DNA of 26,147 bases from Escherichia coli (GTDB lineage Bacteria > Pseudomonadota > Gammaproteobacteria > Enterobacterales > Enterobacteriaceae), in the NCBI RefSeq assembly GCF_003334355.1, contig NZ_QOWP01000043.1; one strand, 5' to 3'. Positions 6,176 to 16,771 of this stretch are shown here, in pieces (position 1 is the stretch's first letter; each line of letters opens with the position of its first letter). The notes below the pieces were generated by a model. The model was not told the origin of the DNA. It ran no database searches and saw only the letters and a list, made by a program, of their open reading frames with translations. Made by a program: the position numbers and the translations under genes.

Positions 6176-8374
6176 TTAAACCACATCCGGCAGCTTATCG
6201 AGCAGCTTATCCAGAGTGATGGGATAATCCCGTACCCGAATACCGGTGGCGTTATACACCGCGTTGGCGATAGCCGCGCTCACGCCGCACAGGCCCAGCT
6301 CACCGACACCTTTGGCCTTCATCGGGGAGGATATGGGGTCGGTATCATCCAGGAAAATCACCTCCTGTTTTGGGATATCCGCATGGACCGGCACCTCATA
6401 CCCCGCCATATCGTGATTAACGAAGTAGCCCAAACGGTCATCTACCGCCAGCTCCTCCATCAGTGCCGCGCCCATGCCCATAGTCATTGCTCCAATGACC
6501 TGGCTGCGTGCAGTTTTCGGATTCAGGATGCGTCCTGCAGCACACACAGCGAGCATACGCCGGACCCGAACTTCTCCCGTCGCGCTATGCACGCCGACCT
6601 CCACAAAATGCCCGGCAAAGGTCGACTGCTGGTACTCCTTGCTCAGTGTTCCGAATTCAATGCTCTCTTCCGCTGTCAGTCTGCCGCCTGCGGTGGCCTC
6701 ATGTAGCATGGCGCTTCGGGTACCGTTGGTAATCTTGCCGTCGGCAAACTGCGACTGCTCAGGATCAAACCCGACTGCCGAGGCAATCATTTCGCGAAGC
6801 TTCACACAGGCGGCGTAAACGCCGGAGGTGGAGGTATTCGCGCCCCATTGTCCACCAGAACCCGCAGAAACCGGGAAACTGGAATCGCCGAGGTGAACCG
6901 CAACCTGCTCCAGCGGTACGCCAAGCATTTCCGCTGCCGTCTGGGCCAGAATGGTGTAGCTGCCGGTGCCAATGTCGGTCATGTCCGTTTCCACGGTAAC
7001 GGTGCCGTTTGGTTCGAGGTGAACCCGAGCACCCGATTTTTCCAGCAGATTATTGCGAAAGCCCGCCGCGACGCCGTGGCCGACTAGCCACTCCCCGTCG
7101 CGCACCTGTCCGGGTGTGGCGTTGCGCTGCTTCCAGCCAAATTTATCCGCTCCGGTGCGCAAGCACTCAATAAGCTGACGGCGAGAGAAGCGGCGCGTCG
7201 GATCGGCGGGGTCAACCTGAGTGTCATTCAGGATGCGAAACTCGACGGGATCGATGCCCGCTTTTTCCGCCAGTTCATCGATCGCGATTTCGAGCGCCAT
7301 CAGACCGGGGGCTTCGCCGGGCGCACGCATGGCGTTCCCTTCCGGCAAATCAAGCGTGGCGAGCCGCAGGCCGGTATGACGGTTTGCCCCTGCGTAGAGT
7401 AATTCGCTTTGCTGTACCGCCGTTTCCGGCGTGCCGCCGGGCAGGTTTCCGGACCAACTTTCATGTGAGATAGCGGTGATTTTCCCGCTCTGGTCAGCAC
7501 CGATACGCAAGTGCTGAAGGGTGGCGGGGCGGTGCGTGGTGTTATTGGGAATAGTGGGGCGGGGGAGCATCACTTTAACCGGACGTTTCACCGCTCGGGC
7601 GGCGAGGGCCGCCAGCAGTGCATCGCTTCTCAGGAACAGCTTGCCGCCAAACCCTCCGCCGATATACGGGGAGATAATACGCACATTCTCCACGGGCACT
7701 TTCAGCGTTTTTGCCAGATCGGTGCGGCACCAGTCAATCATCTGATTTGAGGTCCAGAGGGTAAGCTTATTTCCATCCCAGACGGCCATCGAGGCATGCG
7801 GCTCCATCGCCATATGGCTCTGGTCCGGGGTCGTGTAGGTAGCATCAATCTTCACCGCAGCGGAGGTGAAAGCCCCGTCAAAGTCACCGACGTTTTTGTC
7901 GGGCGTGTCTTCCGGCGGCTGACTGACGGCCTGTTTCTCGTCCGCCAGGGAGTAAGCTCCTTTATTGCGGCGATAGTGCGCCTGCACCAGCGAGGCCGCC
8001 GCTCGCGCCTGTTCGAAGGTCTCGGCCACTACCAGCGCAATGGCCTGATGATAGTGCTCAATAGTGGGGCCGCCTAACAGTCTGGCGGTGTTTTTGTCGC
8101 CTTTGCCGAGTGCCCCGGCGTTACTGGCGGTAATGACAGCCAGTACGCCCGGCGCTTTTTGCGCGGCGTCCGTATCAAGAGCGGTGAGGCGTCCTTTGGC
8201 AATGGCGGAACCGACGATATAGCCATAGGCGGCGTTGGGGGCTTCTTCATGCCATTCGTAGGCGTAGCGTGCCGTGCCGGTAGTTTTCAGCGGTCCGTCG
8301 ATGCGGTCATGGGGACGACCGACAACCTTCAGCTGATCGATCGGGTTTTCCCCTGCGGGTTTATCAAATTTCAT
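6176..8374 (-). CDS. paoC: Aldehyde oxidoreductase molybdopterin-binding large subunit PaoC
   Basis: 732-aa [44 protein letters not shown]... recognised as YagR/PaoC, xanthine dehydrogenase-family large subunit. Start overlaps the paoB stop by 4 nt. Confidence 0.92.
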
Positions 8375-9327
8375 GCTTGTGCCCTCGCTTCAGCCAGTAC
8401 GGAGGCAAGCGTTCGCTTCGCCAACAGGAGTTTAAAGGTGTTTTCAGCGGTGGGATGGGCGCTGGCGAACAGCGCGTCATATACGGCCTGCGCCCCCTGG
8501 GATAGCTGAGCATCCGCAGCCTCAATGCGCCAGGGCTTATGTGCTACTCCGCCCAGCGCGACGCGCCCGCTGCCGTCAGGCTGAATAATCGCCGCGACCG
8601 ATACCAGGGCAAAGGCGTAGGAGGCGCGATCGCGCACCTTACGGTAGATATGTTTTCCGCCGAGCGGCGGAGGTAACGTCACCGCAACGATAAGCTCACC
8701 GGGAAGCAGGGCGGTTTCAATGTGCGGCGTTTTCCCCGGTGGGTGATAAAAATCAGCCAGTGTGATACTGCGAGTCTTTCCCTCCGGCGTGATGGTTTCC
8801 ACCACCGCATCCAGCAACCGCATTGCGACCGCCATATCGCTCGGATGGGTGGCAATGCAGGCTTCGCTTACGCCTACCACCGCGTGCTGACGGCTAAAGC
8901 CTTCAAGCGCCGCGCAGCCGCTCCCGGGCAGGCGCTTATTGCAGGGCTGATTGGTGTCGTAAAAATAGGGGCAGCGCGTGCGCTGGAGCAGATTACCTGC
9001 GGTGGTTGCCTGATTACGTAACTGACCAGACGCGCCAGCGAGCAGGGCGCGGGAGAGTACCGCGTAATCACGACGCACGCGCTCGTGAGCCGCCAGGTCG
9101 GTGTTCCGTACCAGTGCGCCGATGCGCAGCCCACCCGCGTCGGTCACTTCAATCTTATCGAGCCCGAGCCCGTTCACATCGATAAGGTGGGTGGGCGTTT
9201 CAATTTCCAGCTTCATCAGGTCCAGCAGATTGGTCCCGCCCGCGATAAATTTTGCGCCGGGTACGCGCTGAGCGCTAAGTGCCGCCTCGGCCGGGGTGTT
9301 CACTCGTTCATAGGTAAACGCCTTCAT
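8371..9327 (-). CDS. paoB: Aldehyde oxidoreductase FAD-binding subunit PaoB
   Basis: 318-aa [46 protein letters not shown]... recognised as YagS/PaoB. Start overlaps the paoA stop (9324..9327). Confidence 0.92.
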
Positions 9328-10013
9328 GATTTTATCTCCCCCGCAGCATCTTCAATGGCGGCAAGGATGTTAGCGTATGCACCACAGCGACAGATGTTGC
9401 CGCTCATACGTTCACGGATCTCATCGACAGTTGTTTCTGGAGCGGAAACCAAATCGACCGTGACGTGACTGGGAATGCCGTCCTGAATCTCTTTTAGCAC
9501 CGCTACTGATGAGCAAATTTGCCCGGAGGTGCAGTAGCCGCACTGGAAGCCATCATGCTTGATAAAGGCCGCCTGCATGGGGTGAAGATTATCTGGTGAA
9601 CCCAGGCCTTCAATGGTGGTGATCTCGGCCCCCTGATGCATGACTGCAAGCGTCAGGCAGGCATTAAGCCTGCGACCATTGACCAGCACGGTACAGGCTC
9701 CGCACTGTCCGTGATCGCAACCTTTCTTGGTACCGATCAAATGCAGATTTTCACGCAAAGCGTCCAGTAGCGTGGTTCGGGTATCCACCTCAAGCTGCTC
9801 GGTTTTGCCGTTCACCTTCAGTGTCAGGGGCATTATCTCTGGCGCGGGTGTAGCTGCCGGAACGCTTGCCGCCAGCGTAGAATGAGGATAAACCACGGCG
9901 GTCGCCGCTGTTGCGGCGCTCACTTTAATCAGATCGCGACGGGTCAAACTTAAATCGTGCGGCTCGTGCTTCCCAACCCGATTATCTTCGGGGTATTCGC
10001 CTTGGTTGCTCAT
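9324..10013 (-). CDS. paoA: Aldehyde oxidoreductase [2Fe-2S] iron-sulfur subunit PaoA, with Tat signal peptide
   Basis: 229-aa ORF with twin-arginine signal ([17 protein letters not shown]) and cysteine clusters [10 protein letters not shown] and [11 protein letters not shown] ... CRCGAY typical of 2Fe-2S ferredoxin-like subunits. First gene of the operon, divergent from yagU. Confidence 0.92.
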
Positions 10014-10430
10014 ACCAGGCCTCCGGTATTCTAAAGGGGAAAATAAGAGTGCGTTGCGAGAGTGCTGATGCTTTTTTAAATGTTAAGCATAGTCGGCGAC
10101 AGCAGGAGGATTATTCTTAAAACGCGAATGCAGCTATGAGCCCGGCTAATAAATTCATGTTCGCCGGGATGTTGATGATGATGGGAGCTGGTTTATTGCT
10201 TTAGTTGTACGATGCAAAAACCAATAAGGAAACCTGTGATTTTCAGCTCTGCATCACCCTGCAAATCTCTGTCACTTCTAATATAAAAATAGGGAGAAAT
10301 GATGGAGCTTATATTCATTGGCGATTAGGAAACCATCTTGTTATACAAAACAATACAGTTCTTTACATTTGCCTTGTTTTATGAATACTCCTGAAGAGGT
10401 GTATAACATAATGGTACAAGCAGGGTAGAT

Positions 10431-11044
10431 ATGAATATATTTGAACAAACTCCACCGAACCGCAGACGTTATGGTCTTGCTGCATTCATTGGGCTGATTG
10501 CTGGCGTTGTTTCCGCATTCGTGAAGTGGGGGGCTGAAGTTCCATTGCCGCCACGTAGCCCGGTGGATATGTTTAATGCAGCGTGTGGCCCGGAATCATT
10601 AATCAGGGCTGCAGGCCAAATTGATTGCTCGCGTAATTTTCTCAATCCACCTATATTTTTCTTCGAGACTGGTTGGGGCTGACAGATCCCAATGCGGCTG
10701 TTTATACCTTTGCCGGGCATGTCTTTAACTGGGTTGGTGTTACGCACATTATCTTTTCGATAGTGTTTGCTGTCGGTTATTGTGTGGTCGCTGAAGTATT
10801 TCCAAAAATTAAACTCTGGCAGGGCTTACTGGCAGGTGCTTTAGCCCAACTTTTTGTTCATATGATTTCATTCCCTCTCATGGGACTGACGCCACCTCTG
10901 TTTGATCTCCCGTGGTATGAGAATGTTTCTGAAATTTTTGGACATTTAGTCTGGTTCTGGTCTATTGAAATTATTCGCAGAGATTTACGAAACAGAATTA
11001 CTCATGAGCCAGACCCTGAGATCCCTTTAGGCTCAAACAGATAA
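10431..11044 (+). pseudogene. yagU: yagU (DUF1440 inner-membrane protein) interrupted by a single-base frameshift near 10652
   Basis: Track shows two consecutive ORFs in different frames (10431..10682 and 10673..11044) that together make one ~204-codon protein. Frame 1 encodes ...SRNFLNPP then runs into a stop at 10680..10682; frame 2 encodes [20 protein letters not shown]... from 10652 and has no ATG start. N-terminus [25 protein letters not shown] recognised as YagU. Confidence 0.7.
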
Positions 11045-11057
11045 TGCATTGAATGAT

Positions 11058-11086
11058 AAAAATGGCGCAAATACAGCGCCATTTTT
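11058..11086. terminator. Rho-independent terminator downstream of yagU (potentially bidirectional)
   Basis: Perfect 11-bp stem AAAAATGGCGC / GCGCCATTTTT with 7-nt loop AAATACA, flanked by an A-run and a T-run, starting 14 nt after the yagU stop. Confidence 0.65.
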
Positions 11087-11291
11087 ATAGGTTAAAAACA
11101 TTGCTTTTTATATTCTGATGCAGATAGTCAGTGAGTATATCGCGCTACTTCAGGATGATGTAGATCCGAAGAACGCTACAGAAGAGAGGCATTGTTGCTG
11201 GCAAATAGAAGAAGTATCGGGTTTTGTTACCCCTGAAAAACGAAGCCCCGCTATTATCGCTGGCGGGGCAGTGCAATTAATTATTGTATGT

Positions 11292-11621
11292 TTATAACGG
11301 TGTCAGCCCGTATTTAGCCCTTGCACGATTGCAAGCCTCATTGACGACTCCGTTCTCACCAGACATGGCAAATTCTCTGCATGTGGACGATCGATTTTTA
11401 TATATCGTGCAGCAGGCATTTTTGCCCGGGGTTCCTGCAAGGGCAATACATCGGGGGTTTTTCTGATTGGTACCGCTCATGCATCGGTGAAAAGGGGATA
11501 TTTGTTCAGTGAGCCTGGCGGGAATGGTACCGCCAGCATCGTCGGCTTCGGCCCAGTAAAAAGAGACGCGGAAAAATGCACAACAGGCACCACACGTCAT
11601 GCATGGATTCAGATTGCTCAT
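11292..11621 (-). CDS. ykgJ: YkgJ-family cysteine-cluster protein (UPF0153)
   Basis: 109-aa [40 protein letters not shown]... with CxxCxxCC and additional cysteine motifs; recognised as YkgJ. Confidence 0.85.
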
Positions 11622-12644: not shown

Positions 12645-14256
12645 GAATCTCTCCTGAAGCGCTGACTTCGCCAAACCAGCCGTTATCATCTACCGTACGC
12701 AGCGAAATGGCGTTATCCATTGGAATCGAAAATTTGACTGTGGTCTTATCCATCTGCCCCACTTCGCCAGAGATATCAGTCCACGGTGTGGTCAGCCACA
12801 GCGCATCGGTCATATCCCGCCAGCTATCATCGCACCCGGCATCGTAGGTTTTTGTAGCTCCGTTGCGGGTAATAAAGGAAAGTGTCGCCGGGAACGGTAC
12901 TTTCGCCTTACCGTCATCGGAGCTGAAGACACAATAGGAGCGCCCGCCAATCACCTGCGCGGGTCCGGTCACCTTGATCAGCACTTCGTCGGCAGCTGTT
13001 TTACCGCTGGTGGTTACGATATAGCCGAAATCGAGTGCCGACTCGCCGCTGCCAACATATCCCTCCCGCGACGGTGTCTGAGTATATTCATCGGAGATAA
13101 TACTGATGCTGAAATCACGGGGTTTGATAATCAGCGTGTTGGAGGTAGAAAATTCATACCAGCCAGACTCCGGTGATGTGGTGTTCTGAAAGCGAAAGTT
13201 GAATAGATCTTTGGTGTTGATATCGCTGATCCCGAGGTTCACCATCTGCTTAAAGAAGTTGCTCGAGAAGAAAACATAGATCGAGTCTGCGCTCTTCATC
13301 TCGTTGAAGGTGTAGTAATAGGCGGTATTGCTCACCGGTTTCCATGAACTGCCATTCAGACTGAACTGCATATCGTACGCCCCGACGGCCGAGGCTAACG
13401 ACGAGTTGGCGATCGCCGGGAATATATGGATTGAGGTGTTGCTGAGTCCGTTTGTTTGCAGGGTATAGTTAACCATCTTACAACTTAATCCTGAACGGCT
13501 GCCGATGGTTTGCGTCCGGCAGTCGGCGTTCCCTTCGCCCAGAGTCGGTACTCCGTCGCTGTTGATAAATACTTCCGCCAGCGAGTGGGTATTTATCAAC
13601 CGTAGATTTGCTGCTTTCGTATGGGTGACGTTGCGAACATACCAGTTGCCGGAGGCCTGATCCTTACAGCGTGCGCCGCTGCTGGCGTCATAGTTCACAG
13701 AGGTCTGGCAGGCATTGATGGTCATTGTAAAGCTGCTGCCGACGGGCATTTGTTGCATATACTGGTAAAACGCGTCTGACAACATGCCGTGCATCCACTT
13801 CGCGCCGCCGCTGGTCACCGTCGCGCCATAAAATCCACTGGCGTCGGTGGTTTGCGGCAGGATAAGACTGGTGGTCATATTACACCCAGCGTACCAGTTG
13901 ATGCAGCGCAAGCCAGTTAAAGGAGATGAAACTGGTGAATTTTCCAGCCACATATCAAACTTCCAGTTGGTATAAAGGCCGGTGTTGTAACCGTTATCAA
14001 TGTAGCCGAGGCTTTGCTGATAGATGGTTCCTGAACCAGTGTATTTTAAACCGGTCCAGCGGTTGGCACCGGTCAGGCGCGGATCCAGCGCCCCGCCAGG
14101 AGTGACGAAAAAGTTGTCGTCTGAGTTGTTTTCGACAAACACAAACTCGCGTGCCGGTGCATCCGCCCAGGTTGTTTTGCTCACTGCCGCTCTGAGCGCA
14201 GTTACTGGCCAGATTAGCGCGAAAATTATCATCGTTATTAGTAGGTTAACTCTCAT
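12613..14256 (-). CDS. ecpD: E. coli common pilus tip adhesin EcpD (MatE)
   Basis: 547-aa [37 protein letters not shown]... with signal peptide; recognised as EcpD. Overlaps ecpC by 11 nt. Confidence 0.9.
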
Positions 14257-16771
14257 TCTCTTCTCCTGTCTGCGTCACCGCCGCCCACGATGAGAGGCCG
14301 CTGCAGACCACATCACCGACCCAGACGGCACCGCGCACCTGGTTGAGTTCCAGAGCCACTTCGCAGGTTTTATTGCCACTGTAGCGAAAATCGATAGTGG
14401 GGTATTTCTTATCCACGTCCATGACAAACTCGCCGTTTTCATCGGTTCGGGTTCGGCCGATATGGTTGTTAATCCGTGCGTTAGCCAGCAGTGTGCCGTC
14501 TTCCGCACGGATACGACCGGAGACGGTAACCATCTGCTTCACCTCTGGCTCAATGACAGCGACATTGCCTGGATAGAGAGTCAGACGACTTTTGCGGCCG
14601 CTGACGATATCGTAACTGTCGAGTGAGTTTTTGCTGTTCTGTAACTCCACCTCATATCTTCCATAGGGAGAGAGCGGGAGATAGTTACGCTTGCCGTTAA
14701 GCGGGAAAATCCGCCCGTTGATTTTGGCGCTGATCTGACCGTCGTCCTCCAGCCCGGTGTTGAATATCACCCCAGCGTTGCCATCAGTCCGCCCGCTGGC
14801 AGCAATGTTTTTACCCTGCCAGCCGACGCTGCCATTGGCGGTCAAGTTGGTATTGACGTAGCCGTCCGCCGCGCTATTGACGTTCAGCGTTCCGCTGGCG
14901 TAACGAGCGTCGAATTGTGCATACGCCCCGCCGCTGAGGGTTTTGTCATCACCGGTATCGCCGGAGATGGCACGTGACAGATTGGCACCAACAGTGCGAA
15001 TGGTTCCTTCATCAAACTGTTTGCGTGCTGACAGGTTTGCCATGGTGTAGCCGTTTTGATGAGTCATCCCTGCGCTAAACCAGTTGCCCAGTGGTAGCGA
15101 GAGATCGAGAGCGATATATTTTCCTGTATTGGCGTTGCTGTCGCCGTTGTTATAGCGCTGAATACCGGCCCGCAGGCCAAGCGAACCAAAGGTACCGCTG
15201 TAGACATTTTGATAGTAATCTGCCGTGTAATAATGGCTGTTGTAACGGCGGTCATCATTGTAGCTGATGCTGAATGTGCCCAGCTTCGACCACAGTGAGT
15301 TCAGGTTGAGTGTGCCGCCGATTGCACGGTTGTCGGCATCGCTACGTCGCAATTGATTGCCAATGCGGGTTTTTTCCTGATTAACCCACAGCGAACTAAA
15401 GCCTCCCGGTAGAGTGGCGCTGATGCTGCCGATGCTGCTCCATGAGCTGTCACTGGCCAGCATATTTTGCAGGTTAACGTTGATCGCCCCCCCAAGCGGC
15501 AGCGTCAGACGGGTTTCACCCACCGCCTGATTATCGTATCCATATCCCGTTGCCGCCCAGCTAAGCGTACTCAATGAGCCGGAGGTCGAGGCACCTGCTA
15601 GCCAACTCTCTTTAGCTGGTCGCGTCTTTTTCCCGTTTTCCGACCAGCGATCCATATGAAAGCTACCGCCCCATACCTGCCACGCCAGTGGTGCACCGAC
15701 GCCGCGCCCCCGGCTAAACAGCTTATTGACCCGCTGGGTGCGTTTGCTGATCACGCGACCGTTAACGATCACCTCAACTTCCACATCGTAAATCCCGTAC
15801 GGTAGACCCCGGGTATCCACTTCATGATTGCCCATAGTGAAGTTCTGAACGCTTAGTAGCCGCCCATCACGGGTGAGATGTACTTCGCCCGCCGCCGGTA
15901 AAAAGGCGATCACTGGCGTGGCTGACTGGCTGCTGTCGAAGATGGTGGAGCTGGCCTGGTTTCCCCAGGAAAGGCCGTAAATCTTCCCTGCTGAAATGGC
16001 GGTCATCGGCCCTAAGGACTGCAAGTTCCAGGTGTCGAGCATTCCACCGGCAAATCGGTGACCGGCAAAATCGCGTTCATACATCGCTTTATATAATTCA
16101 CTGTCCTGTTGACCGCTACCGATCCCGTACAGCGAGCCGTCGAGCACCACATGATGTTCGCGCAGTGCAGTAACGTTATTCAGCGACAGATAGCTGGATG
16201 TGTTGCTCCCGCCGTTACGCAACTGGTTGTTATAGACGCCCAAGTTATAGCTCAGATTACTGCTGAGGGTGTTAACACTGGACTGCCCGATGTCTTCGCT
16301 ACGTGAGCGTAGTACGGTGCCCAGCGCTTCGCGCTTGACCACTAGCTGCAGCAGCAGTTGGCGCAAGCTGAGATCCAGCTGCGCGTTGTCAGTCAGGGGG
16401 ATGGTAAGGGCCTCATTGAACGGGGCGTTGGCCAGAGCCATCAGCTGCTGTTGAGTTTGTTCGCTGACACTGGCGTTATCTTCACTCTCTTCCAGCTGTA
16501 TTTTCCGGATGCGTAGCTGTCCATCGTCCAGCCAGATAAAAGCGCTGCCGATTCGCTGATCGTCCTGGCGACCCTGGCTACCGGCGAGATGAATATAGAG
16601 CGGGACGCTCATGCCGTCCTGAAGCGCCTGACTGAAGGCCTGCGGAATAATCACCCCACCTATTTGCTGCGCACTTATGTCAGCAGCGCTGGCATCGGGC
16701 TGAACGAACAAAAAGACCATGCCGAAGGCAAACTGGGCTTTCAGTCCTGGGGAGAACCGTCGTAAAGGCAT
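14246..16771 (-). CDS. ecpC: E. coli common pilus usher EcpC (MatD)
   Basis: 841-aa [39 protein letters not shown]...; large, outer-membrane-protein-like composition; recognised as EcpC. Confidence 0.9.

Follow-up and report, generated by a model that had tools for sequence, protein, structure and literature searches.

A single-base deletion very probably makes yagU a young, clone-specific pseudogene in Escherichia coli

In the window, by which we mean the whole 26,147-nucleotide stretch of Escherichia coli DNA that was analysed, the yagU gene is split into two reading frames by the loss of one G, c.222delG. This is very probably a genuine deletion, which arose once, has since been inherited vertically and has turned yagU into a young pseudogene. 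As such, yagU is an ordinary, recent and clone-specific pseudogene, and the identical allele has already been flagged in RefSeq.

Identity and surroundings of the broken gene

A megablast search of 5,426 complete E. coli genomes showed positions 10431-11044 on the plus strand, a broken allele of 614 nt, to be yagU. The gene is flanked by paoA and ykgJ, as it is in K-12 MG1655, and the wider order of the locus, in which yagU is divergent from paoABCD, convergent with ykgJ and upstream of the ecp operon, is the same in K-12, PSS-12, SY033 and J2, so that it occupies the orthologous position of the YagU family. When the missing G is put back, the translation equals WP_001019920.1 exactly, and this repaired protein matches the Pfam DUF1440 profile (PF07274) over residues 26-181 with an E-value of 7.9e-48, a match that takes in the whole model (positions 1-135 of 135). 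Both fragments of the broken gene have precomputed PF07274 matches as well, that of the 83-residue piece being only weak. The name yagU, given in a sequence-only reading of this DNA that preceded our analysis, is thus borne out by the K-12 locus and by the profile. A scan of intact YagU and of both fragments against the NCBIfam HMMs matched no family. The other genes of the window, namely paoABCD, ykgJ, ecpEDCBAR and fdeC, are of normal length.

Between the convergent yagU and ykgJ, at 11056-11088, there is a hairpin of 13 bp with an A-run before it and a T-run after it, for which direct folding gave -18.4 kcal/mol (z -4.6), and which, judging by these features, is likely to be a bidirectional intrinsic terminator. 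Since yagU is monocistronic, with what would be a terminator of its own, and ykgJ is convergent, no polar effect of the lesion is expected. A scan for consensus promoters and terminators performed at chance level and missed this hairpin.

The missing base and the two reading frames

The sequence-only reading had proposed a one-base frameshift near position 10652 that splits a frame of 204 codons, and both the reading frames and an alignment with K-12 agree with it. Translation from the ATG at 10431 runs through 74 native residues, Met1 to Pro74, ending in NFLNPP, and then through nine out-of-frame codons (IFFFETGWG) to a TGA at 10680-10682; the 5' fragment therefore spans 10431-10682 on the plus strand and counts 83 codons, and the prompt stop after NPP had been correctly described. 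The 3' remainder (10652-11044, plus strand) lies in the -1 frame. It starts at T10652 and comprises native codons 75-204, 130 codons in all, which end in PLGSNR, are followed by a TAA at 11042-11044 and are identical to K-12 throughout. The two frames do share one T, as the earlier reading had it, with T10652 closing the Pro74 codon CCT and at the same time opening the Tyr75 codon TAT.

A base has indeed been lost within CCT-TAT, but it is a G and not a T. K-12 reads CCA CCG TAT where the window reads CCA CC-TAT, and alignments with the intact genes of K-12, J2 and SY033, together with those of five carriers, put the absent G between C10651 and T10652, on the plus strand. The lost base is nucleotide 222 of yagU, the third base of the Pro74 codon CCG, and the lesion is accordingly written c.222delG, p.Tyr75Ilefs*10. 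Alignment with intact K-12 yagU, the check proposed with the earlier reading, returned this gap of one nucleotide in an otherwise identical gene, and the gap is also the sole indel relative to K-12 in 6.6 kb. Compared with intact and otherwise identical orthologues, the frame is plainly disrupted, as befits a frameshifted pseudogene.

The position given in the earlier reading also needs correction. The lesion had been placed next to a T-run; the T5 run, however, occupies 10656-10660, the deletion lies four bases upstream of it, and the deleted G sat between a C and a T, with no homopolymer. Since the deletion is neither within nor adjacent to the run, the argument from homopolymer error does not apply to it. 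The 3' frame has no start codon before the TTG at 10673 (native Leu82), which is its first possible start, and gene callers report the orphan 123-residue open reading frame that begins there (10673-11044, plus strand) as a separate DUF1440 gene.

Carriers of the deletion and age of the allele

The identical 614-nt allele is present in strain PSS-12 (RefSeq NZ_AP027697.1), isolated from human faeces in Ecuador, where PGAP has tagged it as 'frameshifted' (locus AABK13_RS09565). In addition, the exact 83-residue product was found in a collection of 15 billion proteins, on assembled contigs of SRR27314501 (a contig listed for three samples), ERR10677920, SRR24680064 and SRR3823860, plus AP027697, and all of these have the same gap. 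Relative to the window, the four contigs carry 7 substitutions in 16 kb, 10 in 18 kb, 6 in 9.5 kb and 0 in 5.9 kb, respectively. The deletion is therefore seen in six distinct sequences, one each for the window and the PSS-12 assembly plus four from unrelated read sets, of which SRR3823860 may be the window's own source. Besides the window, this amounts to reproduction of the lesion in five SNP-distinguishable sequences, at the level of assemblies and contigs. The carriers share one haplotype yet differ from one another by a few SNPs, so that, window included, the clone is represented by no fewer than five distinct genomes. Between the two alternatives left by the sequence-only reading, a genuine inactivation or an error, the recurrence of the same allele in six distinct sequences strongly favours the former.

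The window and PSS-12 differ by no indels and by 34 SNPs over 19.9 kb, 31 of which fall in window positions 3153-4678; the 15.5-kb pao-yagU-ecp core has just 2. These 34 SNPs, together with a different upstream island, rule out that the window is the PSS-12 genome itself. Two single substitutions distinguish the window from nearly all of its relatives: 6491T is synonymous in codon 628 of paoC (GGA vs GGC) and common only to the window and the SRR3823860 contig, whereas 19131T, between ecpR and ykgL, is private to the window. The window probably comes from the SRR3823860 isolate or from a sister of it. In the SRR27314501 contig, at 13816-16342 (around window position 15486), an extra C splits the ecpC usher gene into open reading frames of 405 and 432 residues, which may be either a second pseudogene or an assembly error; ecpC of the window is intact, with 841 residues.

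The upstream island is itself variable. It covers window positions 1-5159, abuts a truncated LysR-family gene (4821-5159) beside paoD, and holds a gene for a PerC-family regulator (2698-2979), one for a pRiA4b ORF-3 family protein (3583-4125) and several hypothetical open reading frames. In PSS-12 the island instead encodes a P4-family primase alongside a protein that carries the annotation peptidase M41 family, and in SRR27314501 it encodes Ogr/Delta, an AAA ATPase and an S8 peptidase. As carriers of the same deletion differ here, the insertion site of the island turns over faster than the flanking core.

The allele is rare. In the 5,426 complete E. coli genomes, a 70-nt probe across the site hit a single record with an identity of 99% or higher, compared with 3,172 in the 95-99% range, so that the frequency of c.222delG in this set is 1/5,426, the one genome being PSS-12. 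An exact 35-mer across the deletion had no match in the GTDB representative genomes or in the JGI metagenome contigs, and because these scans gave no further carriers, support for the allele comes from a handful of isolates.

Comparison with near relatives gives the direction of the change. Within the 15.5-kb core the window and PSS-12 are all but identical, and the next best complete genomes reach 99.6%. One of the latter, strain J2 from wastewater in Panama, has an intact yagU with CCG and differs from the window, over positions 4955-11525 (about 6.5 kb, pao to yagU), by four substitutions and the G. Because this near-identical relative retains the intact CCG, the deletion is derived on this haplotype. 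Furthermore, the 3' two-thirds of yagU has accumulated zero secondary mutations, which indicates that the pseudogene is young.

Consequences for the protein and expected phenotype

Hydropathy and an AlphaFold2 model place the four helices of YagU at about residues 14-36, 101-123, 130-150 and 162-191, with a loop of some 65 residues separating helices 1 and 2. The model, built with 26 homologues, has a mean pLDDT of 68.8, the transmembrane helices being confident and the periplasmic loop falling below about 55. The positively charged residues ahead of helix 1 and behind helix 4 suggest a topology with both termini inside and the loop in the periplasm; both C52 and C66, which lie in this predicted periplasmic loop, are invariant. 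In Klebsiella, Vibrio, Aeromonas, Pasteurellaceae and Campylobacter the homologues are single open reading frames of about 200 residues that are 60-90% identical. The family is thus unusually conserved, with identities of 60-90% across Enterobacteriaceae, Vibrio, Aeromonas and Pasteurellaceae with Campylobacter at about 72%, and its reach up to Campylobacter hints at strong constraint or at horizontal transfer.

The frameshift falls inside the best-conserved motif of the family, as aligned from the homologues: C66-S-R-x-F-L-N-P-P-[YH]-x-F77-L78-R79-D80. Downstream of it lie 38 of the 60 invariant columns and three of the four transmembrane helices (TM2-TM4). An intact member is a single open reading frame of about 200 residues with four transmembrane helices and the motif CSRxFLNPP[YH]xFLRD, whereas the window gene is broken after Pro74; it is a pseudogene of the family and most likely not a functional member. 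Translation from the native ATG would shift after Pro74 and stop nine codons later, yielding a product of 83 residues that keeps TM1 and the first 40 or so residues of the predicted periplasmic loop, without F77-L78-R79-D80 and helices 2-4. Since this product lacks most of what the family conserves, the c.222delG allele is most likely null, and the truncated protein would be non-functional, with the strain losing the contribution of YagU to survival in extreme acid.

The link between yagU and acid resistance, to which the sequence-only reading had pointed, is documented (PMC1626474; PMC2270276). A yagU::kan mutant of W3110 survived pH 2 at 19 ± 2%, vs 70 ± 6% for its parent (PMC1626474); external acid induces yagU 16-fold, among the strongest responses, and the gene responds to external and not to cytoplasmic pH (PMC2270276). 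Moreover, yagU is a direct target of CpxR in ChIP-exo and iModulon data (PMC7657598). By analogy with the K-12 knockout, the clone is expected to show a modest phenotype, with survival at pH 2 reduced about three-fold, though this may differ in the genetic background of the window strain. As for how YagU acts, no mechanism is assignable from sequence or fold searches: a sequence search of the PDB with a 26-sequence profile gave 0 matches at E-values up to 1, and a Foldseek search of the AlphaFold2 model against the PDB returned nothing below an E-value of 0.5, the best being 0.58, with VKOR-like four-helix bundles appearing among the matches only above 1.

Alternative explanations

Could the frameshift have been created in base-calling or polishing, one G having been dropped from a true genome that reads CCG TAT? 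No assembly error is commoner than a single-base indel, some further yagU 'frameshifts' in public data fall in homopolymer tracts, namely the G6 run (nt 93-99) and, for T199, a T-run, and are possibly errors, and as the carriers were judged at contig level a systematic error shared by the Logan runs is formally conceivable. Against this, the lost G was flanked by C and T outside any run, the identical gap recurs in six sequences that are distinct by SNPs, among them four read sets from different archives, a comparison with K-12 over 6.6 kb shows no indel but the gap itself, PSS-12 shows none over 19.9 kb, and the remaining genes of the window are all intact. What marks an artefact, an error-prone context combined with absence from independent data, is thus not what we found; the context, the recurrence and the clean surroundings make an artefact very unlikely, and we give it almost no credence. 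A real deletion could still have left yagU partly functional, either by a low-level -1 slip on TTT TTC TTC (10656-10664, plus strand), which lies downstream of the lesion, is not the mutated site and is the only place where such a slip restores the frame, or by termination and reinitiation at TTG 10673. Re-pairing of tRNA-Phe from TTC (10659-10661) to TTT is possible; the product, NPP-IFF-LRDW, would keep F77-L78-R79-D80, and the slipped protein of 204 residues would differ from the native one only at Y75I and I76F. The TTG, in turn, sits 7 nt upstream of the frame-0 stop, the two fragments could assemble in the membrane, and the 3' part of yagU is free of secondary mutations. However, an undecayed 3' part is equally explained by a young lesion, and TTG is a weak start with no strong Shine-Dalgarno sequence before it. 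The overlap of the frames (10637-10679) is without a canonical X XXY YYZ heptamer, offering only A TTT TTC and T TTC TTC, at which one tRNA cannot re-pair, and the region 10662-10725 holds no stimulatory structure, since its predicted fold is no more stable than those of shuffled versions, 101 of 200 of which do as well (z 0.08). Nor is the two-frame arrangement conserved, being confined to one clone (1/5,426 genomes) while the homologues in other genera are all single open reading frames of about 200 residues, from which we conclude that recoding has not been selected and that any read-through is accidental and probably well under a few percent. Partial function by either route is therefore quite improbable, although an accidental slip may keep a trickle of near-wild-type YagU (Y75I, I76F). 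Programmed frameshifting as such and phase variation were both rejected, given the lack of a repeat tract at the site, of conservation, of a slippery heptamer and of a stimulator.

A genuine, inactivating deletion, which is the reading we prefer, may also be asked whether selection favoured it, the clone then being one of many convergent yagU inactivations. The gene has been broken independently elsewhere: ten sampled places that encode the orphan 123-residue frame held at least eight other independent lesions, none of them c.222delG, which comprise insertions of IS1 or IS3 (nt ~106-149), shortening of the G6 run by one or two G, delT199 and delG176, and strain 26561 has an IS1A insertion in yagU. 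The orphan frame occurs in 9,472 index blocks of the collection, against 85,821 for intact YagU, blocks not being counts of genomes, and at the sensitivity of megablast 500 of the 5,426 complete genomes lack a match to yagU. Such a pattern, in counts uncorrected for phylogeny, fits relaxed selection on a dispensable gene equally well. Some of the homopolymer cases are possibly sequencing errors, and the 60-90% conservation of the protein in several families of Proteobacteria implies that it is generally under purifying selection. In an evolution experiment, moreover, IS1 insertions near yagU were judged to be passengers (PMC12416847), which again speaks against adaptive loss. We thus regard it as unlikely that selection favoured this deletion, and we hold as unlikely, too, the general claim that yagU is repeatedly inactivated in natural E. 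coli with its loss being positively selected, and not merely tolerated, in some host or environmental niches.

Significance and comparison with known systems

The chief value of these results is in quality control: the frameshift being biological, yagU should be annotated as a pseudogene in the window genome. The strain, together with a version in which the G is repaired, would offer a natural loss-of-function background for probing the role of YagU, and c.222delG can serve as a clean marker of the clone, a small E. coli lineage found in several unrelated data sets. Known mechanisms are left unchanged by this finding.

The closest counterpart is yagU of K-12 (b0287), to whose DNA the window is identical across the whole gene save one base, in the same paoA-ykgJ locus; K-12, however, makes one protein of 204 residues with four transmembrane helices, whereas the window is left with a piece of 83 residues and an orphan piece of 130 codons. 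The pseudogene of PSS-12 has the identical 614-nt allele in a near-identical core, but other genes precede the position that corresponds to window 3153, and the window has 6491T and 19131T, which makes it a sister isolate. Other disrupted yagU alleles have the same outcome, an N-terminal stub followed by the orphan 123-residue frame that starts at TTG, although they have arisen through separate events. Finally, the two overlapping frames of yagU, from which a -1 shift would yield the full product, with a T-rich run of Phe codons in the overlap, resemble the -1 frameshift arrangements of dnaX and of IS3-family transposases. Unlike those programmed genes, the arrangement in yagU is unconserved and without heptamer or stimulator, and its ancestral state is a single open reading frame.
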